In this document: positions 8,401-37,633 of the stretch, piece by piece | Position numbering within the stretch: position 1 is the first letter of the stretch | Layout: each line of letters begins with the position of its first letter | From: a virus | Length of the DNA: 64,000 nt | IMG/VR virus record: IMGVR_UViG_3300014325_000010 | Coordinates: 33,130-97,129 of that record | Strand: one strand, 5' to 3' | Program-made: the position numbers and the translations under genes | Notes under the pieces: model-generated | The model's database searches: none | The model's input: the letters and a program-made list of their open reading frames with translations, nothing else | Told to the model about the DNA's origin: nothing

Positions 8401-11400
8401 GCATAACCTTGCATCCACACCTTAGTAATTTCATCATCCGCCTTCTCCCACATATTTGTGAAATTGGTAGCATTTGTTCTATTCTTAACGAGTGCATCAG
8501 CTTGGGAACGAGTTAAGTCTGGAAACATTCCTTCGAGCATTGCAACGCCAGCACCTTGATCTGCCGCAGCTTTGGCGCCATCACGAATACCGGCATTAAT
8601 ACCAGCAATAGTATCTGTAACCGTTGCTCCAAGGGAACGAAAATCATCCCAAGCATCGACGATTTTTCCAATGGCTTTGTATTGTCTCTCGAGTTCCTTA
8701 TTGTAGTTTTCTGCCAGAATTGGACTCATGAATTGTTCGGCATGAGCTGTTACAGAAGCCGGAATACCCTTGGAGAAACCTTCGTTAAGTTGAGTCTTTT
8801 GTGCATCTGTTAATTCAATAACTGCATCTCGAAGTTTCTCTGTTCCCTTGACAGCCTCGATTTGGCTCTTCGTAAGATTGGGAAATTTGGCAGCTACTTT
8901 GTCGACACTATCTCCCATTTGTAGATAATAGTCAACAACTTTTATCTGCTCTGTAGAGAGAGTATCAAGAATACTGAGCCAACCACCAGAGTCTTGTGCC
9001 CAGTCGCTCCATGCTTTATTGTAGTCTTCAATTGCTTTTTTTGCTTTTGAAGTCGTTTCTGCAGATTTTTCAAAAGGATTAACTGGATTGATAATTTTAG
9101 CAACATTAGACCCAGGAGTCACTCCTGAGAAAGGCAATAAATTTCTCGAAGCTAAATCTAAATTTGTGGTGTCACTTGGTAAAAACGAACTATTTTTTAC
9201 AGATTTTTCATGGTCAATTACCCATTGTAATATTCCTTTAATTTCGTTCAGTTTTAAACGAGCTTGATCAATACCTGTTAAATCACCAAATAGTTCTTTA
9301 ATAACGCTTCCATTCGAAGCTTTACTGTCTGTCATCCAGCGCAAAATTCCTTGAATCTCAAGGAATTTTAAACGACTTTCTTCTAGTCCAGTTAGATTAT
9401 TGTACAATTCCCATAACACACTACCACTTGGAACAGGATCATTGAGTAGCCCTGATAATTCTTTAACTTGATTCTTAATATCAGTCATTAAACTCAAAAC
9501 TTCAGGACCTTTGCTATTTTCCCAAAGTTTTTCTAGATCATTCCAATGTTGATAAAGTTCATATACTGCTACACCTAATGCAACAATAATTGCTCCATAT
9601 CCTGTTAATTCGAGAGCAGTCATTCCTCCTAGAAGACCGGCTCCAGCTCCAGCCTCCGTAGCAGCAACACCCACTCCACCTGCACCAATTGCGGGAAGTG
9701 CAGCACCACTTGCTACAGTCCCACCAACTTTTAAAGCAGCTAAAGTTTCTTGAGCAGTTTCTAAAGTTTTAGTTGCAAGAGCAACTTCGGAAAGACCTCT
9801 TTCAACACCGAATAGATCAAGTATGAGTTGAGCAAAACTGATACCAGCTATTTTTTCAAATGCACTGATAAGATGTCCAGCACCAATAGTGGCTTCACCA
9901 AAGAACATTAACGCCGGACCAGCAGCAATAAGAAAGAGTCCAAACGCTGCGGTTGCCGTTTGAATAGAACTTGGTAGTTTAGCCCACCATTCGACTGCTG
10001 CCTTGATGATAGGCAACATGTCTGTCTCAAACCACTTTAATAGTCTTGTAACAATTGGAAGTAATACGGCACCAATTTCAATACCAACATTATGGAGTTG
10101 AGTTTGAAATGATGCTAATTGGAAATTGAATGTGCGAGTAGTAACTTGAAAAGAATCATTCAACGTGTTATTAGCATTTAATAGTTCGTGAGTCGTAAAT
10201 GCGTATCTTTCTTCTTGAGCTCCAGCAGTTGCGAGAACGTCAACGAAAGCTCGAACATTTGGAAAGACATCATGTAATTTATCTAATCCACCCGGTAACT
10301 CCTTCATTCGTTGCGTTAAATGAATTAATGCAACGTCTAAACCCTTGGTAACCATTTCCTCCCGAAGTTCGCTCATCGAAACGCCAAGAGCTTTTAGTCC
10401 TTTCTCAGTTTTAGAACTATCATTCAACATCGTGCTTAAAATAGCACGAATACCAGTTGCAGCAATATCAGTAGAAGCACCTAAGTGGGTAAATGTAGCA
10501 ATAGAAGCATTGATATCAGCGAACTTTAAACCAAATGCAGCAGCAATAGGATTCACACGAGCCAACGCCGTTACTAATTCGTTGACCTTCATATTACCCA
10601 ATTGGACTGTCTTTACCAATTGGTCAGCTGCTTGTTCAGCTGTTAAGTTAGTGCTTTGAAATGTAAGCATTGCGCCCACAACAGCTCGTGTTGTTTCTTC
10701 AACACTACCCATTCCAATTGCACTCATCTTAGCAGAGTGAGTCATAAGATCCATGGCAGCAGCACCACGGAATCCTGCCGATTCGACAACAAATAGACCT
10801 TTAGCTAATTCTTCTGGAGCAATAGCTGTTTCTCCAGATAATTTTAGAATTTCCCCTCGAAGATTTTTTACCTCTTCAGCAGACGCACCAGCGAGAGAAA
10901 CAACTTTTGCCATGCCGGCTTCAAAATCTCCGGCAAATTTTATAGATTCTGCACCAGCCGCAGCTAAAGGAACAGAAATAGCAGCAGACATTGTAACACC
11001 GACAGCTCGCATACCGCGACCAACTTCGGTGATTACACTTCCAACATTCTGCCATTTTGACAAAGCCTCTGCTGTTTTAACAGAAGCTTCTGCATTTTGA
11101 ACAGAAAGTTGTGCTGCTCGTTGTGTGGCTTCAGCAGACGAAGCCATTGCTTTCTTTACAGCAGCATCAGCATCTTCGGCTTGTTTCTTTTGATTAGTAA
11201 ATAGACGTTGTTGCGCGTCGGCAATTTTCGAAGCATTTGCTAGTACACCAGCCCCGGCATCCGCTGCACTTTTCTCAACTTCTTTCAGTGCAACAGAAAG
11301 TTTTTTCGTTCCTGCTTCAGCAACTAATAATTTTTCTGTAGCAACTTGTAATTTCTCAACCATTCCTTGAGAAACAGCAATACCAGCTGCTCTAATTTTT

Positions 11401-12532: not shown

Positions 12533-13033
12533 TTAACCGATGAGCGTCGTTCCAATCTTCATACGACCAATGAAACGAATGGTAACGTCAGCCGACATTA
12601 ATCCATCTTTGGGCGCATGTGGAACAAAGTTCTGCACACGACCGGACATAATCCACACAGTTCCTTCAGGAAAGGTAACTCGAAAGCCAGTCACCGTGTT
12701 ATTGATGATCAAGCTTTGCAGACCAGTGATATGGTCATGCGTGGGGTCCTGCGGAATGTAGTTAATTGGCATCGTCATCGCGCCACGGCGAAGAACGCCG
12801 AGCACGTACGAGTCAATGTTTTCATTCTGCGTAGTCGAGTCGAACTCATTACGCATGAGTGAAGGTGGGGTGATATCGCCCAGTTCGGCGACATCAGTAA
12901 AAACGGTGGGAGTTAGCACGGTCTGGTAGGCGAAGATCGTGCCATGGCCCGACAAAGAATTGACAGTCCACAGTAAACCGTCGGGACTTTGATCGAGCAG
13001 GGATCCCAGTGCGAAGAAACTTTTGCGATGCAT
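12533..13033 (-). CDS. Putative major tail (tube) protein
   Basis: 166 aa, at the position of the major tail protein (upstream of the chaperones). Beta-rich with TVTGFRVTFPEG...VTIRF segments typical of siphovirus tube proteins. Confidence 0.55.
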   Translation of the reverse strand: MHRKSFFALGSLLDQSPDGLLWTVNSLSGHGTIFAYQTVLTPTVFTDVAELGDITPPSLMRNEFDSTTQNENIDSYVLGVLRRGAMTMPINYIPQDPTHDHITGLQSLIINNTVTGFRVTFPEGTVWIMSGRVQNFVPHAPKDGLMSADVTIRFIGRMKIGTTLIG

Positions 13034-13051: not shown

Positions 13052-13459
13052 CTAGAATGGTCGCTTGAACCCAAGAACGTTGAACGTATACAACTGCCTG
13101 TTGAAATCGTCTAACGGCATTTCGAAAGGTTCTTGTAGTGGTACGATTTCAACATACCAAACACCATTAACATACGTATTTTTCACAGAAGAAAATAACG
13201 CATAGGCAAATTCAGCTTTTGACTTCGCAATTGTTGGTGATATTGCACGAACAGTAATTGAGGCTCCAGGACGTCGATAAGCAGCTTGAGGAGCCGAATT
13301 TTGTGTACGAAGCGCCCCAGTTCCTCCCGTTTCGTTGATAACAGTAAATGGCCCATTTCCCTTTGGAATAGACCACGCAGAAGATAAACCAATATTTGTA
13401 TTATAGATGCCATACCCGCCATTTACCAAAATTGTAACTAAATCGTTTCCCCAAGACAT
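13052..13459 (-). CDS. Putative tail terminator / tail completion protein
   Basis: 135-aa ORF between the head-tail joining genes and the major tail protein. Assigned by position and size. Confidence 0.4.
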   Translation of the reverse strand: MSWGNDLVTILVNGGYGIYNTNIGLSSAWSIPKGNGPFTVINETGGTGALRTQNSAPQAAYRRPGASITVRAISPTIAKSKAEFAYALFSSVKNTYVNGVWYVEIVPLQEPFEMPLDDFNRQLYTFNVLGFKRPF

Positions 13460-13463: not shown

Positions 13464-13862
13464 TTATCCGCGCTTTAGTCGAGCATTAATTCGACGTAGC
13501 ATGTAAGGAGCACTTGCAAATAGAACGGATTCGATAAATTTAGCTTGAGTTGGTGGTGCATGGTAGTTGTCTAATTTCTCATGCACGATTATGGCATAAG
13601 GAATGTCGGGGCCACCAGCAACCACACGAGTTGTAATTTTTCGCCCAATGAATGGACGTGTTGCATGAACACTATCACGTAATTGCCCAGGGTGAGGTGC
13701 ATCCGGTCTTAAATCCACTGGAGTGATTCGTGCACACTCTTCTGCTTCAATAACCGTTTCCTCAAATTGAGCTTCCGCAAACGCAGTGGGAAATCTTTGC
13801 GCAAGACTTCGTATCTTACGCTCCATTTCCACATTGCCTTTAACGGTTGCACCACTAGGCAT
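13464..13862 (-). CDS. HK97 gp10-like head-tail joining protein
   Basis: 132 aa. The N-terminal region (KGNVEMERKIRSLAQRFP...APHPGQLRDSV) matches the pattern I associate with the HK97 gp10 family. Position is consistent. Confidence 0.5.
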   Translation of the reverse strand: MPSGATVKGNVEMERKIRSLAQRFPTAFAEAQFEETVIEAEECARITPVDLRPDAPHPGQLRDSVHATRPFIGRKITTRVVAGGPDIPYAIIVHEKLDNYHAPPTQAKFIESVLFASAPYMLRRINARLKRG

Positions 13863-15087
13863 GGACTACATCCTCCAACTCAACTTTAGCAGACGGATCC
13901 AACGCCATCTCGGGATTTACTAACACCTCGTTGATCATTAATGCAAACATATTACCGAGGCTTTCCCAACGATACAGAGGATTATTCGCAAGTTTTAATC
14001 CAAGATCACGATATTTATTTCGAATTTCTTTACTGGTGTAAAAGAAATCCAGTGCTTCCAGAGTCTTCTGTTTGTCGGCAACACCACCAATAGTATTTAA
14101 CATTGGTGTCGTGTTTGTAGAAGTACACGGAATAAGATAAGCGGCATCTTTAGCCCAATCACCATACGCCGCCCAATCAGAAACAATTTGTGGAATCCCG
14201 CAAGCCATCCCCTCTATCGTAGGTAATCCAAAACCTTCACCTTGTGAAGTACTCCACATAACGTCTAACATCGAGTACATTTGAGCTATTCGTTGATCAG
14301 ACCAACCAACCCAGAAAGGTGGAATTGCTGTTAGAAGATGATTTGCAAGTACGACTCCGTATTTCTTAGAGTAGTAATTGGATAATTGTTCAATATCAAA
14401 TCCACTATCATCTGTAGGAGCTTGCTGTAAATAAAGAATTGCGTCATGAATATTTCGCGTTGCAATCCATTCAGCAAAATATTCAATATTGAGATCAAAA
14501 CGTTTTCGAGGGCCATTCCGATTCACATTGCCCACGATAAACGCGTCCAAAAGATTACCTACTAAACCAACATCTTTTCGAGCGGTAAGCCGATCTTGTG
14601 GTTTGTAGATATTTAGGTCTACTCCACAAGGTAGAATTGCGGAAGGACCCGTGTAGCCGCCATTAATTGCTTCTTGACGACCAAATTCTGTCCAAAAGAT
14701 TGCGAGAGACAATCCATTTAGTTTATCTCCTTGGCAATTCAAACTATCTACAGCAACGATTCCAATTACTGGAACGTCTTTCAGTCGCTTAAGATAAGAG
14801 GGAAAATTCCAAGGATCATTTTGGACAATAACCACATCTGGCTTAAAGGTCGCCAATAATTCAGCTATTCGAGGTTGTCCCGACCAATCTCCACCAAACA
14901 TAGCCGATTTAATTGGATATGGATATGCCGTAGGTGTATCACCATTGAAATTAATACCAAGCACCATAACGTCATACGGACCTCCAGGAGTTTCTCGGTA
15001 GTCTACACTGCGGAGAAGACCATGGGTGTTCTTAGCAAAGCCCGACGGACATCCAGCATCACCAATAAATAAAACTTTCTTTCTCAT
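13855..15087 (-). CDS. Glycosyltransferase, GT-B fold (GT1/GT4-like), inserted within the head-tail joining gene block
   Basis: 410 aa. C-terminal EGFGLPTIEGMACGIPQIVSD is the EX7E motif of retaining GT4-type enzymes. Start overlaps the upstream gene stop (15087) and its stop overlaps the next gene start (13855-13862), so it is translationally coupled to virion genes. Confidence 0.75.
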   Translation of the reverse strand: MRKKVLFIGDAGCPSGFAKNTHGLLRSVDYRETPGGPYDVMVLGINFNGDTPTAYPYPIKSAMFGGDWSGQPRIAELLATFKPDVVIVQNDPWNFPSYLKRLKDVPVIGIVAVDSLNCQGDKLNGLSLAIFWTEFGRQEAINGGYTGPSAILPCGVDLNIYKPQDRLTARKDVGLVGNLLDAFIVGNVNRNGPRKRFDLNIEYFAEWIATRNIHDAILYLQQAPTDDSGFDIEQLSNYYSKKYGVVLANHLLTAIPPFWVGWSDQRIAQMYSMLDVMWSTSQGEGFGLPTIEGMACGIPQIVSDWAAYGDWAKDAAYLIPCTSTNTTPMLNTIGGVADKQKTLEALDFFYTSKEIRNKYRDLGLKLANNPLYRWESLGNMFALMINEVLVNPEMALDPSAKVELEDVVHA

Positions 15088-15500
15088 TAACCATCTCTTA
15101 AAGTGATAAGATACTTAGTTAACCAAATTTCTCCATAGAACGGATGTGTGGTATCTGCGTCTACAAATCCTTGTGCCGCAGCCACACGACCAGTCGTACC
15201 ATCTGGACATACGATTATGTCTCGAGGATCAAATGGTTCTGTTCTGCCAGCTGCTCCATTTGGAGGAACTGGTTGGAGGAATAGGATATAAGCATTTGTT
15301 AAAACAAGTTGCCCATCCGAGTCATGTCTTTGAATTACCCGCATGTCTACGATTGCTTTATAGACAGCGGGACTACCATAATGTGGTGTACCATCTCCAT
15401 CTTGGCCAATCCATGGAGTATGTGTAACGTCACCTTGAAGAGATTTGGTAACCCCATCTACCGTCTTAACTGCCTTTTGGATAATCGTCCGAAGGCTCAT
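15087..15500 (-). CDS. Putative head closure / head-tail adaptor protein
   Basis: 137 aa, positioned between the connector-like gene and tail joining genes. Confidence 0.4.
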   Translation of the reverse strand: MSLRTIIQKAVKTVDGVTKSLQGDVTHTPWIGQDGDGTPHYGSPAVYKAIVDMRVIQRHDSDGQLVLTNAYILFLQPVPPNGAAGRTEPFDPRDIIVCPDGTTGRVAAAQGFVDADTTHPFYGEIWLTKYLITLRDG

Positions 15501-16075
15501 CGGTATACTTGAAAGATTGGTTTACGAAGAATAGCTGCTCGAGTATACCACGATGGAACAAGTAAGAGAGCCACGTATGGAGGGATTGTTGTCTTATCTA
15601 GAAAAGCGAATTCTGGATTTGACAATCGTAAGTTAGCATCAAGTAATTGGAGATTACTCGCTGATATGCTATTACGGAATTTTACAGCAACTGGACCAGC
15701 TTTGACAGACTCAATTTGATCTTGATCTTGTTGAAGATTAGATGTAAGATCGTCAACTGTTATTAATCGAGCGTATTCCGATTGAGCATCCTTTAATTCT
15801 TGAGGAATAATAGTGCTTGGTAATGCAAACCCATTTCGGGTAAACATACCAGTTCGAGGCCAAGACAAAGCCTGTATATCATCCACCGCCGAACCCGTCC
15901 ACACAAAAGAAGCATTTATAGTTCTACATGCTTCTATTAGTGCAGCTTCTTGAACATCTGTATCTAAATCTGCCCAGCCAGTTGCAAAAGTTCGGGTTAG
16001 CTGATAAGCAGTCGCTTCTGCAAGTGTAGCATACGAATTTGCGTTTGCTCCACCCACCGTTGCATCTATTGACAT
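15497..16075 (-). CDS. Putative head-tail connector protein (gp6/gp15-like)
   Basis: 192 aa. N-terminus ...YATLAEATAYQL... resembles phage head-tail connector N-terminal helices. Position is downstream of the capsid gene. Confidence 0.45.
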   Translation of the reverse strand: MSIDATVGGANANSYATLAEATAYQLTRTFATGWADLDTDVQEAALIEACRTINASFVWTGSAVDDIQALSWPRTGMFTRNGFALPSTIIPQELKDAQSEYARLITVDDLTSNLQQDQDQIESVKAGPVAVKFRNSISASNLQLLDANLRLSNPEFAFLDKTTIPPYVALLLVPSWYTRAAILRKPIFQVYR

Positions 16076-16128: not shown

Positions 16129-16551
16129 TTACTTCTTTGTAGTTGGACCAGGATCCTTCGTCAATGTACCAGCAGCAGCATCAAAGGTACTAACTGCTTC
16201 GGGACTGCTCGAACCAACTTTCGTTTCAGCCGAAAGTTTATCTTTCTGGGCTTGAGCAGCTTCGTCACCCTGCGCAACTGGCCCAATGCCAGCATCTTTA
16301 GCAGCGCGATTAGCAGCATTAGCGAAGAACTTCTTATGGACTTCAGCACCGTGATCAACGAACGGTGCATTTTCGTCCACTGCCTCAAACTTATCACGAA
16401 AGGCCACGGCCTGCCGCGCGTTGAGGTGAAGCACATCACCCGGTTGAACATCAACTCCACCGTGATTATGCGCTCGATTCGGACGTAGACGAAATTCCTT
16501 CGTCGGTTCAGTATAAACCGGAGGAACTACCACTTTAACAGAATCAGCCAT
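16129..16551 (-). CDS. Hypothetical head-associated protein
   Basis: 140-aa ORF between the major capsid and connector genes, with an Ala/Lys-rich C-terminus. Confidence 0.4.
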   Translation of the reverse strand: MADSVKVVVPPVYTEPTKEFRLRPNRAHNHGGVDVQPGDVLHLNARQAVAFRDKFEAVDENAPFVDHGAEVHKKFFANAANRAAKDAGIGPVAQGDEAAQAQKDKLSAETKVGSSSPEAVSTFDAAAGTLTKDPGPTTKK

Positions 16552-16620: not shown

Positions 16621-17634
16621 TTACGCCATGTGGCAAATGCCCGAACGCCCTGCAGCTGATGCCTTGATAAGAGGCACACCAATCTGCCATGTCTTGAAGT
16701 TGATTCTGAATCCGCCAAGAGTGTCCCACTGGACGTTCTGAAGTGGTTCTCCTTGCACCCATTGGACAACGTCCGAAGTAGGCATAACCATGACGAGATT
16801 TGCCGCAGGAAGTTGGTCGACAACAGTGATGCTTTGCAGCCCCTCAACAGCCAACAGACGTTCACGAATAGTCTGTGTTCCGAGAGCCTTGAAGTCGTTG
16901 TCCAGAGGAATGTTCGCATCACGGCCGGTGTACAGCCAGTAAGGGCCATACATACGGTTATTCTGCAAACGGGTAATCATGGTAAGAACGTCTGTAAGGA
17001 AATCTGCGCCAGTCTTACCAGGGGTAGCCCAATTTCCACCAGTGAAAGAGGCAGTCAAACGACTTGGGTGAGTCGTGTAACCGTAGATCGGGAAACCAGC
17101 AAACGTCTTTCCACCCTGGAAAAGCATCTGTTCAGCCATCTCAGCCACTCGTCGACCAGCCTGACGCATATTCGACGTATCGAGAGGCTCTCCGCGCTCA
17201 CGCGATGCCACTAATGTACGAAGGTCGAGGAACCAATCTTTATGAGTGAGAGGGATCGGCAAGCTCGCCATGTCGAGTTCTTGCCGGTCATTCTCAGTCT
17301 GCGTTTGTCCGTCCAACGACACGGTCGCGATTCCCATGTCGGTGATTCGCTCGTATTGTAACATCGTCTTACCGAGCGAATTTGCGAGCGGACGAACAAG
17401 GCCCGCCCCGATCAGATCTTGGACACCTTTAAGAACAGTGAGTGCTTCTTGGACGACAACCTCATCAAAGAAAACCCACTCATCTTTCTGGAGAGTATCC
17501 AAGGTTCGAAGAATAGACGAATCCATTTTCCCAGTTTTAGCCGCCTTCAAAAACTGGTCAGCAGCCCATCTTCCGGACGTAGTCCGAATTAGGCTTGCTC
17601 CTGTGTCGACACTGGCCTCATCGTGCATTGTCAA
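16621..17634 (-). CDS. Major capsid protein (HK97 fold)
   Basis: 337 aa at the canonical position after the protease/scaffold and decoration genes. Composition and length typical of HK97-type capsid proteins. A hairpin followed by a T-rich tract lies downstream on the minus strand (about 16585-16606). Confidence 0.7.
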   Translation of the reverse strand: MTMHDEASVDTGASLIRTTSGRWAADQFLKAAKTGKMDSSILRTLDTLQKDEWVFFDEVVVQEALTVLKGVQDLIGAGLVRPLANSLGKTMLQYERITDMGIATVSLDGQTQTENDRQELDMASLPIPLTHKDWFLDLRTLVASRERGEPLDTSNMRQAGRRVAEMAEQMLFQGGKTFAGFPIYGYTTHPSRLTASFTGGNWATPGKTGADFLTDVLTMITRLQNNRMYGPYWLYTGRDANIPLDNDFKALGTQTIRERLLAVEGLQSITVVDQLPAANLVMVMPTSDVVQWVQGEPLQNVQWDTLGGFRINFKTWQIGVPLIKASAAGRSGICHMA

Positions 17635-17681: not shown

Positions 17682-18128
17682 TTACATGATCTCAACGCGA
17701 ATATTGGCGCGCACAACCGCAGTTGCATTAACGGATTCAAGAGCACGACCAATAATCACACCGGAACTATAGACCTTGAGGGTTCCGTCACCAGCGCTCT
17801 CCAAACGAGCGTTGATAGTGATATTCTGCCCCGACGCAATCCACGCCAGAACACGTTCGCCCTGCTTGAACGAACCAATTTTAACTGTGTCGCCAATTGC
17901 ATAATCAGACGAAACGGTACCAAGCACTTGGTAGGTATTATCGATACCAGCGCCAAGTTCCGATCGCTCCAATGCAAAAGTTCGAGGGCAAGCCGCACCA
18001 GCAGACGCGTGAGGTGCCACAGATAACACACCATCAACCAAATAGCCAGGCTTGATAGCTGCTGTAGCAACGCCATCCTCATTGATGAGAGGATCGCCTT
18101 TCAACGTGATAACTCTCTTTAGTGCCAT
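17682..18128 (-). CDS. Putative head decoration protein
   Basis: 148 aa, beta-rich and Gly/Val/Ala-rich, positioned between the protease/scaffold and capsid genes where DUF2190-type decoration proteins occur. Confidence 0.4.
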   Translation of the reverse strand: MALKRVITLKGDPLINEDGVATAAIKPGYLVDGVLSVAPHASAGAACPRTFALERSELGAGIDNTYQVLGTVSSDYAIGDTVKIGSFKQGERVLAWIASGQNITINARLESAGDGTLKVYSSGVIIGRALESVNATAVVRANIRVEIM

Positions 18129-20120: not shown

Positions 20121-21023
20121 CTATGATGCTTCTATTCGTTCCCAAAATTCCCCAACTATGTTTGACCAATCAAAAGTTGTTCTTACCTCTTCAAATTCTC
20201 TATCTGTGACAGGCAATTCTTTCTTCAGTACTTGTTCAATTGACGCAGTCACCTTCTCCGAACATTCTTCTGGAATAAACACTGCCCACTTATCAAACCA
20301 TTTACGATAGTGTGGTGCGTCAAACATAATTGGACGTGCACCACACATTAGTCCTTCAGCAGCAGGTAATTCAAATCCTTCGTCTCTACGAAGACCAGCT
20401 ACAAATCGAGAACGTGAATAAAGACTTGCCATCTCAAAATCTGGGATATTGAGTTTAGCAGTTGAGTGTGGCCCAATATGAAAATCAGGTCCAACCTGGA
20501 AATGTTTACCTTCGACTCGACGAACAGCTTCTGCACATTCTCGAATACACTCTGCATCAGGCACATAACCTGTAGTCAACATCGTAATGTCACGATCTCG
20601 TTTTCCGTTTCTATTGAATACAGAAGAATCAACACCAAGAGGTGCATAGTAAAATGGGAAATCATATGTTGGAGCAAATTTGGTCAAATCGAGATAGCTC
20701 CAAACTAAATCTGCATTAGTCCAAAGTGGTTTCCAAAAGTCTGGAACCGCTTGTTCTGTGCTCATTAAGCAACACTGCACAATAGCATAGCGCTGATCAT
20801 GTGCCATCTCGTTTTCGATTAACTTATCGATAGGTATATCAGCAAAATTACCAACTCCAACCACAATATGGACAATCAAATCGGCCATCTGTGGGTGTTC
20901 TACAATAGCTATATGTGATGGTGCATGCGCAGCTAAAGCAGTTGAAATTCGTTGTATACTTCTTGCAGGAATATCAGATTTAACGTAAGCTCTTAACATA
21001 ATCCAGCACTCGCCATTAGCCAC
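20121..21023 (-). CDS. Glycosyltransferase-like protein (GT-B C-terminal domain)
   Basis: 300 aa. RRDEGFELPAAEGLMCGARPIMFD is an EX7E-type motif. Confidence 0.55.
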   Translation of the reverse strand: MANGECWIMLRAYVKSDIPARSIQRISTALAAHAPSHIAIVEHPQMADLIVHIVVGVGNFADIPIDKLIENEMAHDQRYAIVQCCLMSTEQAVPDFWKPLWTNADLVWSYLDLTKFAPTYDFPFYYAPLGVDSSVFNRNGKRDRDITMLTTGYVPDAECIRECAEAVRRVEGKHFQVGPDFHIGPHSTAKLNIPDFEMASLYSRSRFVAGLRRDEGFELPAAEGLMCGARPIMFDAPHYRKWFDKWAVFIPEECSEKVTASIEQVLKKELPVTDREFEEVRTTFDWSNIVGEFWERIEAS

Positions 21024-21778
21024 TTCTTAGGATTTTTCTCTTCACTCCACACAAGCGGTTTTGCTGTTTCTCTACCTGCACAAATAGTACAAGCATCTAA
21101 GGGTTTTGCTTGTGTAAGATAAGCATGTAACGCAGATTCCGTTAGCCCATCAATCTTAATACCATCTGTACCAAATTCGCGATTTTGAATAAGCATTGGA
21201 ATATGAGGCCCACAACAACATGTAAAGAAATACCCATAACTGGCACACCTACTAAAATGACGGAAGAAACAACCATCGTATTTGGTTTGTGTTGCTGCTG
21301 GACTAGTTGGAACTGGTTCGAGCATTGTCATGAAATTTGGATTAAGTCTTTCATCTCGAGGTGAGTAGACTACTCCTTCATCTGCACATTTAGCAATAAT
21401 CCATTGAATATCTTGATCTGTCAATTTACCTGGATAGATTGACACAACAAGATGATCAAAAGATTTCCAAAATTCGGGGTATTGCCTCTTTAGCAACATC
21501 CCATTAGTCCATACTTCAGTAATGTCTGCTACCTGTGAATCACGTGCAATTTTAAGAATATCTACTAATTTGGCATTCATTAGGGGTTCACCACCAAGTG
21601 CACCCCATTTATCTGCATGCAAGATAGTTGCCATATGACTGAGATCTTTTTCAACTTGCTTAGGATCTGCAGACCATGGGCCGCGTTCCCGCCATAGTGG
21701 AACACTGTGATTACAACCAATGCAGGATAATTGACAAGCTTGAGTAATATCAGTTTCGAGGTGAGGAATACGTATCAT
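20993..21778 (-). CDS. Radical SAM enzyme with C-terminal Cys cluster (SPASM/twitch-like)
   Basis: 261 aa. CQLSCIGC is a CX3CX2C radical-SAM motif near the N-terminus. Additional Cys-rich C-terminal segment (FFTCCCGPH...CTICAG). Confidence 0.7.
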   Translation of the reverse strand: MIRIPHLETDITQACQLSCIGCNHSVPLWRERGPWSADPKQVEKDLSHMATILHADKWGALGGEPLMNAKLVDILKIARDSQVADITEVWTNGMLLKRQYPEFWKSFDHLVVSIYPGKLTDQDIQWIIAKCADEGVVYSPRDERLNPNFMTMLEPVPTSPAATQTKYDGCFFRHFSRCASYGYFFTCCCGPHIPMLIQNREFGTDGIKIDGLTESALHAYLTQAKPLDACTICAGRETAKPLVWSEEKNPKKWLMASAGLC

Positions 21779-22137
21779 ACACCACTATCCGAACAAAAAG
21801 TCCACATACCGGCGGTAAGATATCCATGAAATTTACAACCATCTAATCTTCGAATAGATGGTTGAAGTGTGGGTTTTTCTCTATTTCCATCCCATTGCCA
21901 ACATCGTTCAAGTTTCTCACCTGTAGCAATAGGTAGGCTCATTAATTCACCACAGCCACAAGGACAGATATAAATAATGGAACTATATGGCCCAATTCCA
22001 TTATCTGCAAAATTATAAGCACCAGGTGTTTCATTATCCCAGATATGGTCTACTTTTGAAGCTTGGACTGGATCAATCATATTAGCTTTCTTTGATTGAA
22101 TGAAACCAACTTCGAATTTTGACCCACCATATTGCAA
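21775..22137 (-). CDS. Cys-rich small protein (zinc-ribbon-like), conserved phage hypothetical
   Basis: 120 aa with ICPCGCGE and CWQWDGNREKPTLQPSIRRLDGCKFHG motifs. Start/stop overlap with the radical SAM gene. Confidence 0.45.
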   Translation of the reverse strand: MQYGGSKFEVGFIQSKKANMIDPVQASKVDHIWDNETPGAYNFADNGIGPYSSIIYICPCGCGELMSLPIATGEKLERCWQWDGNREKPTLQPSIRRLDGCKFHGYLTAGMWTFCSDSGV

Positions 22138-22308
22138 TAAATGCTGGAATTCTAATTCTAATAAAACAAACAGCCTTCAATTTGCCTAATTCCCAAGTTT
22201 CACATAATTCGACAGGCTCTGTTTCAAAAGAGTCACGCCAAAGAAATAAGCTGCCAGTTGGCCAATCATTAGGTTCTTCTAATTCTTTTGTACCATCACG
22301 GTAATATT

Positions 22309-23535
22309 TCATGCACGTACCACTCCAATCCCACCCCAATCACCATGAACTGTAATTTCAATTTTATCCACCATATTAAGATCATGCCAGAAACGAGGCA
22401 CTCCACCAGCTTCAGCTTCCGAGAAGTGGCGAGCATCAGCATTAATATCATGGAAGGCAATAAAGCCTCCGGGTTTGACTATTGTCTTATAAAACGCATA
22501 GTCAGAAGCTACACCTTGATAAGAATGATCTCCATCAATAAAAAGAAAATCTAAGAATTTTCCTGTTAATAATTCCAAGACTTTACACCTTACAGATGTG
22601 TCTTGTGATTTACCGTAAATACTTCTAAAACGAGGGAATCGTTTTTCCAACGCATTTATTTTATCATCAATTCCAATCACGAGACCGCTACAAAGATCAT
22701 GCCATAGGGCACTAGTGCCCCCACGATGGACACCAATTTCTAATACATCCACTGGACTCTGCGCTCGAACTATTTTGGTTAAGGAGCTTATTTCTTTAGA
22801 ATGTTGCTCCATTGGAATATCCGGTGGAAATATACTAGCATTCTGTTTAATCACATCGTAATAATCTGCTCTTTCGAATACGTCTAATTCAGAATCAGGA
22901 GTGACATTAACAATACTCATTCCTTGACGACGAGCATTAAGAAATGATTTTCGCATACGTTCGGGTTGAGGTGGAAAAGATCTTGATCCTTTTGGCCAAT
23001 AATTTTTGTCAAAGTGGTTATCATCTTGACTGCCTGTAATCCATTCAATCTCTTCTTCATTATAAGAATCATCCACTAATGCTTTTCGCATAATATGAGA
23101 CTTATTCCATTTGAAATCATTACCAAGCAAATAGGCAGAACTACAACCCATATAAGCAGCAAGTTGTAGCATCATATACATAACTGTTCCACCAAAATAA
23201 AATGGTGGTTCAATAGAATATTTCTCACAAGCTAGATCACGAACAAAGGGAGTCTTACAATATTCACCTTTAAACGGAATGTCATCTGCTACAAATTTGA
23301 TTGATCCGACAAATTCTTCAAAACCTTTACCCCACTGTTCATAATCGAGGAGGTCCTCCAACGCCCAATACGTTGTAGGAAATCCAAGTTTTTCAAACAG
23401 TAAGTACCCTCGATTACACGAAAAGGTGATCTCCGATTTAAGACCACTCAAGTCCATCGAGGCGAGGCTAGGACCACTTCCTAATAGAAAGCAACGTTGT
23501 CCTAGATGGCGATTGTGAAAATCTGTAATAGTCAT
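22309..23535 (-). CDS. Two-domain protein: Maf/DUF115-like (putative nonulosonic-acid-type glycosyltransferase) N-terminal domain fused to a CmcI-family SAM methyltransferase
   Basis: 408 aa. N-terminal CFLLGSGPSL glycine loop as in DUF115/motility-accessory-factor proteins. C-terminal LEIGVHRGGTSALW...FLFIDGDHSY...GGFIAFHDI matches the CmcI/rhamnosyl-O-methyltransferase class I methyltransferase pattern. Confidence 0.65.
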   Translation of the reverse strand: MTITDFHNRHLGQRCFLLGSGPSLASMDLSGLKSEITFSCNRGYLLFEKLGFPTTYWALEDLLDYEQWGKGFEEFVGSIKFVADDIPFKGEYCKTPFVRDLACEKYSIEPPFYFGGTVMYMMLQLAAYMGCSSAYLLGNDFKWNKSHIMRKALVDDSYNEEEIEWITGSQDDNHFDKNYWPKGSRSFPPQPERMRKSFLNARRQGMSIVNVTPDSELDVFERADYYDVIKQNASIFPPDIPMEQHSKEISSLTKIVRAQSPVDVLEIGVHRGGTSALWHDLCSGLVIGIDDKINALEKRFPRFRSIYGKSQDTSVRCKVLELLTGKFLDFLFIDGDHSYQGVASDYAFYKTIVKPGGFIAFHDINADARHFSEAEAGGVPRFWHDLNMVDKIEITVHGDWGGIGVVRA

Positions 23536-23984
23536 TGGAGCCTTGCAATTGCTTTTTTAACGTGGAAGTCTGTTAAACCAACGTCCCATTTGGTTTTAAT
23601 CAAAGCTTCACGTAAGTTTCCCATGTCACTGTCGTCATCTAGAATAACAAATTTTTCGGCTCCATGCTTGGCTAGCCACTTTTGAATTTCGCTACCTCGT
23701 GGTTCATTGGTAAGAAAGGGTGTTGATCCTATAATACTCCCTCTAACACCAGCTTGTTGTAAAATTTTCTTCACGTTCCAAAATCGTCGCCATGTGGATG
23801 AAATAACAATAACGGAATCTGTCGCGTGTGTGATCTTATTAAGTCTCCTAACCGCCATAGGATCAATCCAAGTTCGGCCAGCTTTTTTGGGCCATCTACG
23901 GATATTATTCATTACGCCATCAATATCTAAAAATACAACTTTCATACACGTGCACCCATCATTGTATAAGCCGCTCGCACACAA
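23532..23984 (-). CDS. HAD-superfamily phosphatase (small, sugar-phosphate phosphatase-like)
   Basis: 150 aa. VVFLDIDGVMNN has the DxDGV HAD motif I. Downstream acidic ILDDDSD is a motif IV candidate. Confidence 0.6.
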   Translation of the reverse strand: MCASGLYNDGCTCMKVVFLDIDGVMNNIRRWPKKAGRTWIDPMAVRRLNKITHATDSVIVISSTWRRFWNVKKILQQAGVRGSIIGSTPFLTNEPRGSEIQKWLAKHGAEKFVILDDDSDMGNLREALIKTKWDVGLTDFHVKKAIARLQ

Positions 23985-25135
23985 AATTCGTCAATTTCAG
24001 CAGGAGTAACAGCTAAATTTGGTCGAAGTCGAACACACTTTTCACCTGTAGGAATCATAATAGTTGCAGATCCCCACATGGCTTCAACAAAATAGTCACG
24101 TTCCGAACGACTTTCAAAATCAATGGCTAGAAGTAAACCCACACGACGACATTTTAATCCTAGACTGATTAATCTTTCTTCGAGGAGCTGACCTTTCGTT
24201 TCCACACTTTGTAAGATTTTTTCTTTTTCGTATACTTCGAGGATTGCTCGACAACGAATCATGTCCATGACATCACCGTCCCAAGTAACTTCAAGACGTG
24301 CTGGATCATCAAAAATCTTACTAAATTGTGTCTTAACCATAATCCCAGATACTTGTGTCTTTTTACCAAAGACTACAATATCTGGTACGATACCAATTCG
24401 TTCAAAATACCACATAGAACCTGTTCCACCAAATCCTGTTTGAATTTCATCAAAGATTAGTGGAATACAATTTTCACTGCACAGCTTACGTAATTCCAGA
24501 ATTAATGCAGTATTAAATACAAGATCTCCAGATGTACATTGAATTGGTTCAATCAGAATACCTGCAATATTACCAGATTTTACATAGGTAGTACATTGTT
24601 TTAGCAAAAGTTCAATATTTTGTGCATTTGGATTAGCCACTTCACAAGAATTGCTAGAGTAAAAACCAGCAAGTCTTTTTGATGCCGGACCAGTTCTAGA
24701 AGCTAGGAATCCACCATACCCATTGATACCATGAAAATTATTTGTGAATATAAGCATTTCGCCATGGTGTCTCAAAATAGCAGTTTTAACCGCTGCTTCA
24801 ATAGCTAATGCTCCGGTACAACAGAAATGAAAATAAGCAAATTCTGCCATTGATGGATGTAATGTAAATGCTGAAATAAATTTTTCAGCTTCCAAACTAT
24901 CCATTTCACAGTTTGCCACCTTCACAGTGGAGTGTAAAAACATCTCATTGATATATTCCACTTTATGGAATATTGGATGATTATAACCAATAGGTAAAGA
25001 AGAATACATACCAAAGAAATCTAAAATCTCTCGCTGTGTATTAACATCATATACATAGGAGCCATGACTTTTAGATAAGTCAGCTTTAATATTGAATTTA
25101 GATGAACGATGAGATTGTTTAATCATGATACACAT
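23942..25135 (-). CDS. PLP-dependent aminotransferase, class III-like
   Basis: 397 aa. IFDEIQTGFGGTGSMW and VVFGKK (candidate Schiff-base Lys) are hallmarks of class III aminotransferases. Confidence 0.7.
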   Translation of the reverse strand: MCIMIKQSHRSSKFNIKADLSKSHGSYVYDVNTQREILDFFGMYSSLPIGYNHPIFHKVEYINEMFLHSTVKVANCEMDSLEAEKFISAFTLHPSMAEFAYFHFCCTGALAIEAAVKTAILRHHGEMLIFTNNFHGINGYGGFLASRTGPASKRLAGFYSSNSCEVANPNAQNIELLLKQCTTYVKSGNIAGILIEPIQCTSGDLVFNTALILELRKLCSENCIPLIFDEIQTGFGGTGSMWYFERIGIVPDIVVFGKKTQVSGIMVKTQFSKIFDDPARLEVTWDGDVMDMIRCRAILEVYEKEKILQSVETKGQLLEERLISLGLKCRRVGLLLAIDFESRSERDYFVEAMWGSATIMIPTGEKCVRLRPNLAVTPAEIDEFCVRAAYTMMGARV

Positions 25136-26195
25136 GTATTACTTTGTCTCGACTAACTGCGAGACGGGTTGCTCGACTATCTCCAGTAACTGTGATTTGA
25201 TGCCATGTACCTCGAGGGATAGAAATGATATCTCCTTTATTTGCGATTATCTTTTTATCTTCAATTACGTACTCATATTGACCTTCGAGAATTAACCACC
25301 ATTCATCCCAGTCTGGATGATAATGACGTCGATTACCTTCTTTTGGTAATTGGCTAATAACTGTCGCCGAATTACTTGGTTTCTGTATTACACGTCTTGC
25401 TCCACCATTTACAGGCAAATCGGCAAGTAGTTGGTCTAGATTAATAGAATTCTGTACTGATAAGTCAATGTCTCCAACACCATCATGATACAATACTTCT
25501 ACCGCGTTAGATTCAGAGTGTTCTGTTGGGGACCAATAGCGATTGATTGCGCGTGATTTACGTCTTTCGAGAATAGCTTCTGCCAGTTCAAAATCTCCCT
25601 GTGTGTCAATGTCTAATGCAGAATCTCCATCTAAAACTAGATGAGAAACTCTACCAGAACTATAACCATAGGTACTTGTAAAATCCTTCCACGCAAAAAT
25701 CCCATTACACATAATGTCTATAGGACGTAGTTGTTGCGATGGTAACATTGGTTTGAATGGATTAAAGTTGGTAGGGGTTCCTTGAATAAAAGCTTCTGCA
25801 TAGAGACGTTTTACTGATAAAACTGTATTAGCACCATCAAGGATTAGATCTCTGGCACGATGTAGATCAATTCGAGAAAGAAATGGGGAGGTTGGTGTGA
25901 TCTGGAATAAAACATCACACGGAACATCTTCTAAAAAACTTGGGATAAAATGTTCACTTGTAGCAGAGTCCACAGCTAATTCTGGTTGACGATGATAAAA
26001 CTTGACACCCAAAGATTTAGCAAGATCTCCTAAGATATCTGCTTCAGAATTAATATAAACCTCATCAAATATTTTAGAATCTCTAGCTGTTTCAACTACC
26101 CAAGAAATTAGAGGTTTATCTCCTAAGAATCGAAGATTCTTAAGTGGAATTCTTGTACTACCAAGACGTGCAGGAATCATAGCCACATATTTCAT
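25119..26195 (-). CDS. CMP-sugar cytidylyltransferase (CTP_transf_3: KdsB/NeuA/PseF-like) fused to a C-terminal cupin domain
   Basis: 358 aa. N-terminal MKYVAMIPARLGSTRIPLKNL is the acylneuraminate/CMP-Kdo cytidylyltransferase signature. C-terminal HYHPDWDEWWLILEGQYEY...GDIISIPRGTWHQI is a cupin two-motif pattern. Confidence 0.7.
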   Translation of the reverse strand: MKYVAMIPARLGSTRIPLKNLRFLGDKPLISWVVETARDSKIFDEVYINSEADILGDLAKSLGVKFYHRQPELAVDSATSEHFIPSFLEDVPCDVLFQITPTSPFLSRIDLHRARDLILDGANTVLSVKRLYAEAFIQGTPTNFNPFKPMLPSQQLRPIDIMCNGIFAWKDFTSTYGYSSGRVSHLVLDGDSALDIDTQGDFELAEAILERRKSRAINRYWSPTEHSESNAVEVLYHDGVGDIDLSVQNSINLDQLLADLPVNGGARRVIQKPSNSATVISQLPKEGNRRHYHPDWDEWWLILEGQYEYVIEDKKIIANKGDIISIPRGTWHQITVTGDSRATRLAVSRDKVIHVYHD

Positions 26196-26839
26196 TCGAG
26201 TACCACCCGACCTTGTTGTGATCCTTCTAGAAAAATTTCGTAACCAGATTTGTAAAGAAGTTCTACCGTTTGAATACGCATTAACTCATGAGTTGGAGGA
26301 TGCCATTCAATAAACAACTTTGGTTTATTCTTTAGTGCTTTAGTCATTCCTTTGAACGCTAAATCCTCAGCTCCCTCGATATCCATTTTTAGAATGTCAA
26401 CTTTAGTGTCTTGTAGAATTTCATCTAGTGTAGTTGTATCAACTGTAAATCGAAAACCTACACTGTGATAACAGCCTTCAAACGAAAGTGATACACCAAC
26501 ATCTGGTTTAATCGCTTCACGTTTTACAGAACTATCAGATACTGCTAATGGGTAAATTTTCACATTTGGATAGGATTTCATCCAATTTTGCAGTAGTTCA
26601 AATCGTATTCGTTCGGGTTCAAAAGCAATTATTTGAATATCAGGTGGGCCATATTTTAATGCAAGACTGATGTAAAATCCGTATTCCGCACCACAATCTA
26701 CATAAACTTTAGCCGTTTTAATTCTATGGATAAATTGAGAAGTAAATGATTCCCATCTAATATTTGATTGTTCACGACCAGTTACCATTGATGAAAGAAT
26801 ATCATCAATAGCTGCTAACCCAAATTCTCGTTCAGTCAT
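26192..26839 (-). CDS. FkbM-family SAM methyltransferase
   Basis: 215 aa. VYVDCGAEYGFY and DILKMDIEGAE motifs. Confidence 0.65.
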   Translation of the reverse strand: MTEREFGLAAIDDILSSMVTGREQSNIRWESFTSQFIHRIKTAKVYVDCGAEYGFYISLALKYGPPDIQIIAFEPERIRFELLQNWMKSYPNVKIYPLAVSDSSVKREAIKPDVGVSLSFEGCYHSVGFRFTVDTTTLDEILQDTKVDILKMDIEGAEDLAFKGMTKALKNKPKLFIEWHPPTHELMRIQTVELLYKSGYEIFLEGSQQGRVVLE

Positions 26840-26842
26840 AAA

Positions 26843-27301
26843 TTACAGTGGTTGCTTAACCCACACCCAATGACCTTCACCAAATCCAACTCGATAGTAA
26901 TTTTGATAATCTGGTGGTTTTACCTTAACACGTTCACCTGTTTCATTAGCTTCTATTAGAGTCCAACCATTAGCATTTAACACAGGTTCGAGGGATAATA
27001 GTGTGTTTTGCCCAAAGGGCATACCGACAGTTATTTGTCGAAACCATGTTTCTGGATTTATTTCTCCTGGCACATAAATTGGAATAGCAGAATTTGCAGA
27101 CGCACCTGCAGTTGATTCAACTTCTGAAGTTTCTGGTTTAGACGATTCTTTTTCCGCTTGTGGTTTAGAAGGCACGATTCCTCCAAAATCTAATTTTGTT
27201 AATTCACCATTTTCTTCAGACCATAACGTGAATGGTGCTTCTTCACTATCTGTCCAAGAAGCAATAGTAACACCATTAGAATTTTTTAACATGATCTTCA
27301 T
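26843..27301 (-). CDS. Hypothetical protein
   Basis: 152-aa ORF within the sugar-gene block. Acidic/Ser-rich middle. Confidence 0.4.
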   Translation of the reverse strand: MKIMLKNSNGVTIASWTDSEEAPFTLWSEENGELTKLDFGGIVPSKPQAEKESSKPETSEVESTAGASANSAIPIYVPGEINPETWFRQITVGMPFGQNTLLSLEPVLNANGWTLIEANETGERVKVKPPDYQNYYRVGFGEGHWVWVKQPL

Positions 27302-27908
27302 CGTAGCTCCTTACCATAAATGAGCAGTAAACCCAGTGTAACATCATCATACTAACATCTTCAGCTAACGCCGGATTATCAGTACCCAACACTATTTTCA
27401 AATGTGCATACTCTGAGACAGATCCTTTATTACCAACAATTGCAACAGATCTCATTCCACGTTCGTTAGCCCGTCGAATAGCCTTGGCTAGATTTTTACT
27501 ACACCCTGAAGCAGATACTGCAATAAAGAGATCATATTCTTTTGCTAAAGCAGATAATTGTATCGCAAACATATCTTCATAACCAAAATCATTTACAGCC
27601 GCTGATAGCATCATACCTGCATTAAGCGAATAAGCTCTATTACAATATCCAGTTTCACGCAAAATATTTAAAGACATCCCTAGTGCAAAATGATCTGCTA
27701 CTGTAGCTCCGCCACCATTTCCAGCAATAAATATTGTATTCTGTTTTTCGTGGGTTTCCTTCACAATTTGCCGAAGTTTTTCGGCATCTGCAGATGGAAA
27801 CCGTTTTGTAATTTCTGCGATAGCAGCAAAATAGTCATCACAGGTTTCGTTAATTACCATTGCTGTAAGGCCTCCCAATCTGGCGTCCACGGAATACCTC
27901 CGTCCCAC
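27276..27908 (-). CDS. SIS-domain sugar-phosphate isomerase (GmhA/KdsD-like)
   Basis: 210 aa. IFIAGNGGGATVADHFALGM and DLFIAVSASGCS match phosphoheptose-isomerase-type SIS motifs. Confidence 0.7.
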   Translation of the reverse strand: MGRRYSVDARLGGLTAMVINETCDDYFAAIAEITKRFPSADAEKLRQIVKETHEKQNTIFIAGNGGGATVADHFALGMSLNILRETGYCNRAYSLNAGMMLSAAVNDFGYEDMFAIQLSALAKEYDLFIAVSASGCSKNLAKAIRRANERGMRSVAIVGNKGSVSEYAHLKIVLGTDNPALAEDVSMMMLHWVYCSFMVRSYDEDHVKKF

Positions 27909-28567
27909 GGTGCTACTAATTTTACCATATGACCTTTATAAGCATCTTCTGGTAATGAAAACGGTTTCATATTCCCGGTACCATATCCTGGGCTGTAATT
28001 GTCATACACAGCAGCAATAGCACTTCTGGTTTCATAATCCTTAATCACAAATTTGTGATGTTCAATAGTAACCGGTGCTCGTTCACCACCTCCAAAAGGA
28101 GATCCAGCGTGAACACCAAAACGGTCACCAGATTTTGCTTTAATTGACAAACGGGTTTGATAATCTGGGAATAATTGTGGAGTCATAAGCACGGACTTAC
28201 AATGATCCCACATATGCGCTCGAGGAAATTCCCAATGATCCTGTTCTAGCCAACAATTATTAATTAGCCATTTTTCCATTGCAGGAGAAAGAGCCTCGTC
28301 ATCATCTATTCGCAGAATATAGTCTCCCTCACAATAAGCTAACGCTGAATTTAGGGAACTTTCAAGATATCCCTTAGATTTAACACATGCTATTTTCAGA
28401 TCAGCATTTGGTATATTAAGGGAGACTGCTTGATCAAATGCCATCGTTCCATCAGTGATCAAGACAAATTCTGTTGACTCTAATTTATCTGCTAATTGAG
28501 CAAGTTTTAAAATGAATGGTCTTGCACACCATTCCATTTTAGATATGCACAGAATGCTTAATTTCAT
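27854..28567 (-). CDS. Glycosyltransferase, GT-A fold (GT2-like)
   Basis: 237 aa. N-terminal Rossmann-like segment and DxD-type YILRIDDDE. Confidence 0.55.
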   Translation of the reverse strand: MKLSILCISKMEWCARPFILKLAQLADKLESTEFVLITDGTMAFDQAVSLNIPNADLKIACVKSKGYLESSLNSALAYCEGDYILRIDDDEALSPAMEKWLINNCWLEQDHWEFPRAHMWDHCKSVLMTPQLFPDYQTRLSIKAKSGDRFGVHAGSPFGGGERAPVTIEHHKFVIKDYETRSAIAAVYDNYSPGYGTGNMKPFSLPEDAYKGHMVKLVAPWDGGIPWTPDWEALQQW

Positions 28568-28648: not shown

Positions 28649-29017
28649 TTACGGAGCAGTTGCCTTCTGTGTTATAAAATTTCCCCAAGCAAGAACTGTT
28701 TCACTGCCGTCATCCATTCGTTTCCAGCTATGTCGATAAGTCCCTGCTTTGAATTTATTCATATCCTCATCAGTAACAACGACGATTGCCCGTTGTGTAT
28801 TTGCACTGCGAGTTGCACTGTAAGTACCAGTGATTGTTGGAGTAAAACTTAAAATTGGTGGTGAAGGTGAAGCATCTAATTTACGTACATCAAATCTGAG
28901 TACCCACCCCGTCATATTGATAGGCACTAAATTTAAATCAATAAGTTCCAATCGAAACGTCTTATCTTCTCCAACAAACAGAACTCCATCTCCGCCAATA
29001 GGTGCATCTAGAGCCAT
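28649..29017 (-). CDS. Hypothetical protein, translationally coupled to the giant repeat protein
   Basis: 122 aa. Start codon overlaps the stop of 29017-33588. Confidence 0.45.
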   Translation of the reverse strand: MALDAPIGGDGVLFVGEDKTFRLELIDLNLVPINMTGWVLRFDVRKLDASPSPPILSFTPTITGTYSATRSANTQRAIVVVTDEDMNKFKAGTYRHSWKRMDDGSETVLAWGNFITQKATAP

Positions 29018-37409: not shown

Positions 37410-37633
37410 AATTTGTCTTCGTCCGCTAGTACAACTTTATTTTCTTTTAACACAGCATATACATGTTGATAAATGTCTGCTATGCTCGTACAACCTAGAA
37501 TTGCTGCTCGACGGTATCCTTCTTCTTTTAATGGAGCACATCTTTCACATGCCCAAAACATACTAGCGGTCCATTCATTGCACCACCAGCATCTATGCAT
37601 GTTTGTATTCCCCGATGCGCTCGAGCCAACCAC
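37406..37633 (-). CDS. Small zinc-ribbon protein
   Basis: 75 aa, CWWCNEW...CERC. Confidence 0.35.
   Translation of the reverse strand: MVGSSASGNTNMHRCWWCNEWTASMFWACERCAPLKEEGYRRAAILGCTSIADIYQHVYAVLKENKVVLADEDKL

Follow-up and report, generated by a model that had tools for sequence, protein, structure and literature searches.

The 64,000-nucleotide window analysed here (positions 33,130 to 97,129 of IMG/VR virus record IMGVR_UViG_3300014325_000010) encodes a GT4-type GT-B glycosyltransferase of 410 amino acids (aa), referred to below as the focal GT, among the genes that join head to tail in an uncultured siphophage. The best explanation, in which we place roughly even confidence, is that the focal GT belongs to a cassette that glycosylates a phage-encoded protein during assembly, probably a protein of the virion. 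The position of the gene between two neck genes is a conserved glycosyltransferase slot across a large clade of uncultured siphophages.

A preliminary description of this DNA had proposed a GT4-like enzyme of the GT-B fold; its open reading frame (ORF) is present on the minus strand exactly as described, and the assignment as a GT4-type GT-B glycosyltransferase is confirmed. The translated protein, which includes EGFGLPTIEGMACGIPQIVSD, scores above the cut-offs of Pfam families Glycos_transf_1 (PF00534; 37.1 bits versus 26.4) and Glyco_trans_1_4 (PF13692; 33 bits versus 27), with a profile match that spans residues 258-321 only, and it matches PHROG 2170 'glycosyltransferase' (E=5.6e-26). The EX7E motif (E284-GFGLPTI-E292) is intact within the C-terminal domain; an alignment of 48 homologs, about 50% identical, shows no substitution of either glutamate. 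Basic residues bind the donor diphosphate in GT4 GT-B enzymes; R190, R194, K195 and R196 of the focal GT, candidates for this role, are also invariant, as is N191. Invariance of the catalytic residues together with conservation of the whole protein indicates selection on enzyme activity. An AlphaFold2 model (predicted local distance difference test score, pLDDT, 90.5; predicted template-modelling score 0.89) consists of two Rossmann-like halves of alternating beta strands and alpha helices, as expected of a GT-B fold, and its best match in a Foldseek search of the PDB is B736L of chlorovirus NY-2A (3oy2; E=6e-25; template-modelling (TM) scores 0.79 and 0.83), followed by sucrose-phosphate synthase, MshA, BshA, HepE, PimB' and PimA; many GT-B structures of family GT4 match at E <1e-13. 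B736L is also the best match by sequence among solved structures (E=5e-14; 22% identity). We infer retaining chemistry from family membership. In NCBIfam the protein scores far under every equivalog cut-off (for MshA, 27 bits versus 462). A defence or anti-defence function, suggested by a weak match to the GT4-conflict family PF20706 (17.7 bits, below the cut-off of 26), was rejected, as no PADLOC model matches the focal GT, the 300-aa glycosyltransferase discussed below (GT300) or the two flanking proteins, p137 and p132.

The focal GT lies inside the head-tail joining genes, as first described, with neck genes on both sides (Table 1). The order of transcription is protease/scaffold, decoration protein, capsid protein, a 140-aa ORF, head-tail adaptor (Ad1), p137, focal GT, p132, tail terminator, tail tube protein, chaperones and a 2077-aa tape measure protein. 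From Ad1 to the tube gene the run is unbroken, with gaps of -4, -1, -8, +4 and +18 nucleotides (nt). The start/stop overlaps noticed earlier at both ends of the focal GT are real: the stop codon of p137 and the start codon of the GT share 1 nt (TAATG, in ggtTAATGaga at 15087), and p132 begins 8 nt inside the GT (ATGCCTAG at 13862-13855, where the GT stop codon is TAG), with a Shine-Dalgarno sequence for p132 (GGAGGA) inside the 3' end of the GT. Neither promoter-like sites (32, versus 43±6 in shuffled sequences) nor terminator-like sites (15, versus 14±4) exceed chance, and none of either kind falls at the gene boundaries from Ad1 to the tube gene. The unbroken run and its overlaps fit co-transcription and translational coupling of the GT with the neck genes; the earlier statement that the enzyme is co-expressed stoichiometrically with virion proteins goes too far, since overlaps do not show stoichiometry. 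The G+C content at third codon positions (GC3) of the GT is 0.31, within the range of its neck neighbours (0.28-0.32), which indicates that it is not a recent insertion; recent horizontal acquisition was rejected because both overall G+C content and GC3 match the neck genes.

The flanking genes are those of a neck, although the preliminary description was right about only one of them. The downstream neighbour is HK97 gp10-like, as stated, by way of its homologs: 17 of 22 match PF04883 (HK97-gp10_like; best E=1.4e-8), and the p132 of the window itself does not match this family and alone matches nothing. The upstream neighbour is not the adaptor but p137, Ad1 being one gene further upstream. 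No Pfam, PHROG or PDB sequence match to p137 was found; a model built from its database homologs (pLDDT 75) matches almost exclusively neck or connector chains from phage cryo-electron microscopy structures (Pam3, phiCD508, Douge, XM1, Chi, GTA, lambda, Bxb1, T1 stopper-terminator and SPP1), and these moderate matches (TM scores 0.35-0.49) suggest that p137 is a stopper-like neck protein. With p137 stopper-like and p132 gp10-like, the focal GT would mark the point in the gene order at which head completion ends and tail completion begins.

More than 400 database homologs of the focal GT were found, nearly all metagenomic and many on contigs of 40-160 kb; the best 120 of them are all at least 45% identical to it, and relatives occur on 241 viral contigs in IMG/VR. 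Synteny was analysed in 83 related loci selected by the GT (individual loci are cited below by L numbers). The next detectable gene downstream of the GT is a gp10-like homolog in 70 loci and the terminator in nine, the slot is the same in all four contexts inspected gene by gene, and the GT stop codon overlaps the start codon of the gp10-like gene in 63 of 68, with 1, 4 and 8 nt as the commonest lengths of overlap. Between p137 and the GT, relatives carry from -36 to 6514 bp of variable cargo (median 2.4 kb), the minimal case being the window and its relative L004 (73% identical). In a second sample, with loci chosen by the adaptor and not by the GT, the slot contains a GT in 28 of 30 loci that have a homologous scaffold/decoration/capsid module and in none of 21 that have a different head module, the adaptor, p137, gp10-like and terminator genes being homologous in both groups. 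Thus, the location that the preliminary description called atypical is so only in relation to textbook phages: within the clade it is conserved (79 of the 83 GT-selected loci and the 28 of 30 just given), and glycosyltransferases inside structural modules are also found in phages Corndog, S-CBS4, Mae-JY09 and phiPsal1. A neighbour-joining tree of the adaptor, p137 and p132 places the empty-slot loci in about two or three groups with deep nodes unresolved; with so few independent events, the association between GT and head module, once considered as proof of an acceptor in the head, was downgraded to suggestive. GT-bearing phages are found in at least six bacterial phyla, and copies in phage context occur in prophages of Acidobacteriota, on contigs of Mb scale, as well as on contigs that binning assigns to genomes such as those of Sulfuricaulis and Saccharibacteria.

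The focal GT had also been regarded as independent of the main sugar island 5 kb away, a view that its relatives do not support. Homologs of GT300, the last gene of the island, are present in 37 of the 83 loci and mostly end 4 nt inside the ortholog of the focal GT; in nine loci the two form a single fused ORF of about 700 aa, in which GT300 is the N-terminal part and the focal GT the C-terminal part. These fusions tie GT300 and the focal GT of the window together. The genes that adjoin the GT in relatives (for example L006, L159 and L164) also include homologs of the radical-SAM, methyltransferase and GT2 genes of the island. In the window phage the glycosylation cassette is divided, its parts occupying two separate cargo sites within a single operon. 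A scan of 149 of the 175 non-redundant cargo ORFs from 47 loci found S-adenosylmethionine-dependent methyltransferases, GT2 glycosyltransferases (11), DegT-type sugar aminotransferases (10) and hexapeptide acetyltransferases (7) to be the commonest cargo, accompanied by radical-SAM proteins, nucleotidyltransferases and cupins. No slot-cargo ORF out of 231 has more than two predicted transmembrane segments, which points to a soluble, cytoplasmic machinery.

Several enzymes of the island (the cytidylyltransferase-cupin, the GmhA-like SIS protein, the class-III aminotransferase of the LAT family, FkbM and an HAD_SAK_2 phosphatase) point to an unusual activated sugar; all of them score below equivalog cut-offs, and candidate products are a heptose, an ulosonic acid or a nonulosonic acid. 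The radical-SAM protein of the island weakly resembles prokaryotic viperins (PADLOC pVip, 4e-8). A Maf-like protein glycosyltransferase, considered on account of an MptE-like domain in the island, was discarded (Pfam 25.9 versus a cut-off of 34.6, and no support from PDB sequences or NCBIfam).

Taken together, the focal GT is predicted to be an active, soluble GT4-type nucleotide-sugar glycosyltransferase, retaining by family, and its gene would have a fixed place at the end of a glycosylation cassette that forms part of the late structural operon in this siphophage clade. The stopper-like protein, the GT and the gp10-like protein would be co-transcribed and made in succession by translational coupling; the GT, GT300 and the sugar-tailoring enzymes of the phage would then most likely transfer a modified glycan to a protein encoded by the phage, the reaction taking place in the cytoplasm as particles assemble. 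The leading candidate acceptor is a protein of the head (capsid or decoration protein), in which case released virions would be sugar-coated. The analysis shows the family, fold and catalytic motif of the enzyme, the place of its gene in the operon, the conserved synteny and the link to GT300; that the acceptor is a protein, the identity of that protein and any gain to the phage, for instance in shielding or stability, are inferred.

The decoration protein offers a lead for an acceptor site, though only a lead. The window protein has the motif ESV-NAT-AV near its C-terminus, and N-x-S/T is present about 15 residues from the C-terminus in 18 of 44 non-redundant decoration homologs (5.9±2.1 in shuffled tails); the motif is inherited by homology, occurs also in the GT-less phage L151, and gives way to D, T or G in many of the phages that carry a GT. 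A conserved 'RSG/NSG' sequence near the C-terminus of the capsid protein was set aside as a glycosylation site: the only GT-less phage of this capsid type has Ala there, but several GT-bearing phages have Cys, Val or Thr. The 140-aa ORF between capsid and adaptor, which has few detectable homologs and a Ser/Thr/Pro-rich, probably disordered C-terminal third (…KVGSSSPEAVSTFDAAAGTLTKDPGPTTKK), is a conceivable glycan acceptor. Among 56 relatives with the same head module, 15 lack a tube gene after the terminator and have an ORF resembling the tail tube protein (Pfam Phage_TTP_12) in the interval between scaffold and decoration gene (for example L005, at 1308-1718, L090-L098, L102, L106, L110 and L149); in these phages the head module may have taken in the relocated tube gene, or else a protein of the tube fold serves on the head. 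No tube-like ORF lies between the scaffold and decoration genes of the window.

The nearest functional parallel is in mycobacteriophages. The passages of PMC12363180 and PMC12619734 that cite Freeman 2023 describe Che8, Corndog and Myrna as glycosylating their capsid and tail-tube subunits with their own glycosyltransferases. Like the window phage, these phages (Che8 gp110; Corndog gp35-38; Myrna) combine glycosyltransferases with a sugar O-methyltransferase inside a structural block, and the role proposed for the focal GT, glycosylation of the phage's own particle, is the same. In Corndog, a TylF-type O-methyltransferase (gp35), a GT2-like protein (gp37) and a GT25-like protein (gp38) are encoded between the portal (gp34) and the protease (gp39); the gp35-38 block therefore fills the same portal-protease gap as the large sugar island of the window, which contains a GT2 enzyme. 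The slot of the focal GT at the stopper/gp10-like boundary is unlike that of Corndog, and the hosts of the window clade are not actinobacteria. The C-terminal attachment reported for mycobacteriophage capsid and tail-tube proteins has no visible counterpart in the window clade.

Chlorovirus proteins B736L of NY-2A and A546L of PBCV-1 (PDB 3OY2 and 3OY7) resemble the focal GT in being virus-encoded GT-B enzymes of about 400 aa, and B736L shares with it a long C-terminal helix that spans both domains; the chlorovirus glycosylates its capsid protein with its own enzymes (PMC9614988). B736L differs in belonging to a giant virus of eukaryotes, and identity is only 22%. The cellular retaining GT4 enzymes (MshA, BshA, PimA, PimB', HepE and sucrose-phosphate synthase) share the GT-B fold, EX7E and Glycos_transf_1, but are 12-16% identical to the focal GT, whose context is a phage neck operon. 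Distant homologs (26-30% identity) are encoded among portal, capsid and neck genes by Synechococcus phage S-CBS4 (gp14), Microcystis phage Mae-JY09 and Pontimonas phage phiPsal1 (gp10), with methyltransferase and GT2 genes nearby as in relatives of the window; they occupy other slots (portal-protease or capsid-adaptor), have no conserved coupling to a gp10-like gene, and have putative functions. Seroconversion systems of the GtrABC type, with a membrane flippase, a bactoprenol-linked GT2 enzyme and a GT-C transferase, are not matched, the focal GT being soluble and the cargo free of ORFs with more than two transmembrane segments.

Several findings weigh against glycosylation of a virion protein. 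No acceptor was identified for the focal GT. Acceptor tails of the mycobacteriophage kind were rejected, since no Ser/Thr-rich C-terminal extension is present on capsid, decoration or tail-tube proteins in any of the GT-bearing loci, in most of which 0-5 residues follow the end of the profile. Common descent could by itself account for the co-occurrence of GT and head module, for which the poorly resolved tree gives about two or three independent events. No cultured phage with the stopper/GT/gp10-like arrangement was found; in the nearest capsid relatives, Brevundimonas phages (36% identity), the neck slot is without a GT. The validated Corndog enzymes gp37 and gp38 are of the GT-A type and so of another class than the focal enzyme, a GT4 GT-B. 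B736L binds GDP-mannose and has no known acceptor (PMC9614988); with its acceptor and role not known, the structural match says nothing firm about the function of the focal GT. Finally, about 40 Verrucomicrobiaceae genomes (within L172-L214) encode cellular homologs of 34-40% identity without phage neighbours. In the one cellular locus examined (L185, Prosthecobacter fluviatilis, 4900-10202), the homolog is accompanied by an RseP-like protease, a GT4 enzyme, a Ser/Thr kinase and a polysaccharide pyruvyl transferase, which implies that the family can serve non-virion glycoconjugates and is not restricted to virions. The Verrucomicrobiaceae branch may be a cellular source or sink of the phage gene.

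In a role in modifying the host envelope, the cassette would act late in infection on a surface glycan of the host (lipopolysaccharide, capsule, teichoic acid or S-layer), and might thereby prevent superinfection or the loss of progeny by re-adsorption to debris. GT4 enzymes typically use lipid-linked or polysaccharide acceptors, and PimA, PimB', HepE and WaaG-type enzymes are among the structural neighbours of the focal GT; the pyruvyl transferase and GT4 genes beside the L185 homolog, a short flippase-like fragment (Polysacc_synt_C) in two cargo ORFs, and the usual reading of phage glycosyltransferases in the cyanophage literature (PMC12801897) are in keeping with such a role. We nevertheless consider it unlikely. 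The 231 cargo ORFs include no flippase, polymerase, GtrA or WecA/WbaP-type multi-pass protein, no initiating polyprenyl-phosphate transferase occurs in the 25 commonest of the 48 cargo families, and the GT is fixed inside the neck operon, not near lysogeny genes. Moreover, the acceptor-side N-terminal domain is as conserved as the donor-side C-terminal domain (58% versus 56% pairwise identity) across GT-bearing loci that range from 43 to 69% G+C and across at least six phyla, while surface glycans are host-specific, which argues for an acceptor borne by the phage.

Synthesis of a small glycoconjugate, or glycosylation of a non-structural phage protein or a host protein, would suit the small-molecule enzymes (sucrose-phosphate synthase, MshA and BshA) that are the nearest cellular structural relatives after B736L and that also appear among the weak NCBIfam matches; all of those matches fall far below their cut-offs, and decoration with a glycan agrees better with a GT so strictly linked to neck genes and accompanied by enzymes that tailor amino- and methyl-sugars, so that a non-virion target seems distinctly improbable. 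DNA is a still poorer candidate for the acceptor. The DNA glucosyltransferases of phages belong to the GT-B class, a gene expressed late would be active at the time of packaging, when glycosylated modified bases could protect against restriction, and hypermodification of DNA by diverse virus glycosyltransferases is attributed to Pyle 2024 where PMC12619734 cites that work; but neither T4 alpha- nor beta-glucosyltransferase (AGT/BGT) is among the top 50 fold matches, no hydroxymethyl-pyrimidine synthesis gene turned up among the scanned genes of the window (64 kb of the 161-kb contig), and the GT belongs to the neck operon, not to the replication module. That the gene is selfish or neutral cargo, a long-resident moron kept only for its translational coupling to the gp10-like gene, has in its favour the variable cargo of the slot, which makes it a hotspot, and the highly conserved overlap of GT stop and gp10-like start; invariant catalytic residues and conservation of the whole protein at about 50% identity make this very hard to credit. 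Glycosylation of a phage protein during assembly remains the preferred reading.

Table 1. Features of the window that bear on the focal glycosyltransferase, and other landmarks
Feature	Position	Strand	Basis or remark
Focal glycosyltransferase (GT)	13855..15087	minus	410 aa; ATG start; GT4-type GT-B
p137, stopper/head-closure-type neck protein	15087..15500	minus	137 aa; assigned by position and fold
p132, HK97-gp10-like neck/tail-completion protein	13464..13862	minus	132 aa; assigned via homologs
Head-tail adaptor Ad1	15497..16075	minus	PHROG 477, E=9e-34; Pfam DnaT_2, E=5e-30
Tail terminator	13052..13459	minus	PF12691, 22.6 bits, just under the 23.8 cut-off; conserved synteny
Major tail tube protein	12533..13033	minus	Pfam Phage_TTP_12, E=1.9e-10; PHROG 158
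140-aa ORF	16129-16551	minus	between capsid and adaptor
Major capsid protein (DUF6260/HK97-like)	16621..17634	minus	candidate acceptor only
Head decoration protein	17682..18128	minus	candidate acceptor only
Protease/scaffold	18182-20032	minus	head module
300-aa glycosyltransferase (GT300)	20121..21023	minus	GT1-like; own EX7E motif EGFELPAAE; last gene of the sugar island, 5 kb upstream of the focal GT
Rest of sugar island	20993..28567	minus	radical SAM; DUF6527; MptE-like + methyltransferase; HAD; class-III aminotransferase; PseF/KdsB-like cytidylyltransferase + cupin; FkbM methyltransferase; GmhA-like SIS; GT2
Portal	42963-44432		
Putative large terminase	46227-47783		no Pfam match
Prim-Pol/VapE primase	59328-61649	plus	downstream of repeats and palindromes

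The sugar island is part of about 23 kb of same-strand cargo (20121-42962, minus strand) that parts the portal from the scaffold/protease gene, the two being adjacent or nearly so in relatives. This cargo also encodes a 1523-aa ORF without a Pfam match (29017-33588), a rhamnosyl O-methyltransferase/CmcI-like protein (37593-38357) and a DUF4082 protein (41517-42620). Between the portal and the putative large terminase lies a gene for a response-regulator receiver-domain protein (44447-45052; E=3.7e-18), an unusual neighbour for packaging genes. The segment from 50000 to 56000 is richer in G+C (51-56%, versus about 40-46% elsewhere) and has short ORFs on both strands; it includes a perfect 18-nt tandem repeat of TCGACCGTTGCGCTCGGC in about seven copies (50182-50323, inside ORF 50142-50840) and a 107-nt stretch (54271-54377) that shares 77.6% identity with Pseudanabaena phage Pam3 in its 'penicillinase repressor' gene. 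Clusters of direct repeats at 56269-56370 and 57310-58500 (three 42-nt units and four 63-nt units) and near-perfect palindromes (TGTGATTTGGATCCCATCCAAATCACA) at 58156-58182 and 58465-58491 precede the primase gene, where they could form an origin or an operator array.

In the literature searched, the only phages with demonstrated virion glycosylation are actinobacteriophages, in which it makes recognition by antibodies less effective. A broader claim, which we offer tentatively and with low confidence, is that the neck operon of environmental siphophages in at least six phyla holds an ancient, clade-wide machine for virion glycosylation, the first outside actinobacteriophages, and that, to judge from the proximity of its GT4 enzyme to B736L and A546L, viruses of bacteria and of eukaryotes may share a lineage of protein-glycosylating GT-B enzymes peculiar to viruses. 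The analysis yields a concrete pair of enzymes, the focal GT and GT300, and a short list of candidate acceptors. If virion glycosylation by this cassette is real, phages with a coat of sugars would be found widely in soil and water, with consequences for how particles adsorb, for their stability, for grazing and immune recognition, and for phage engineering.

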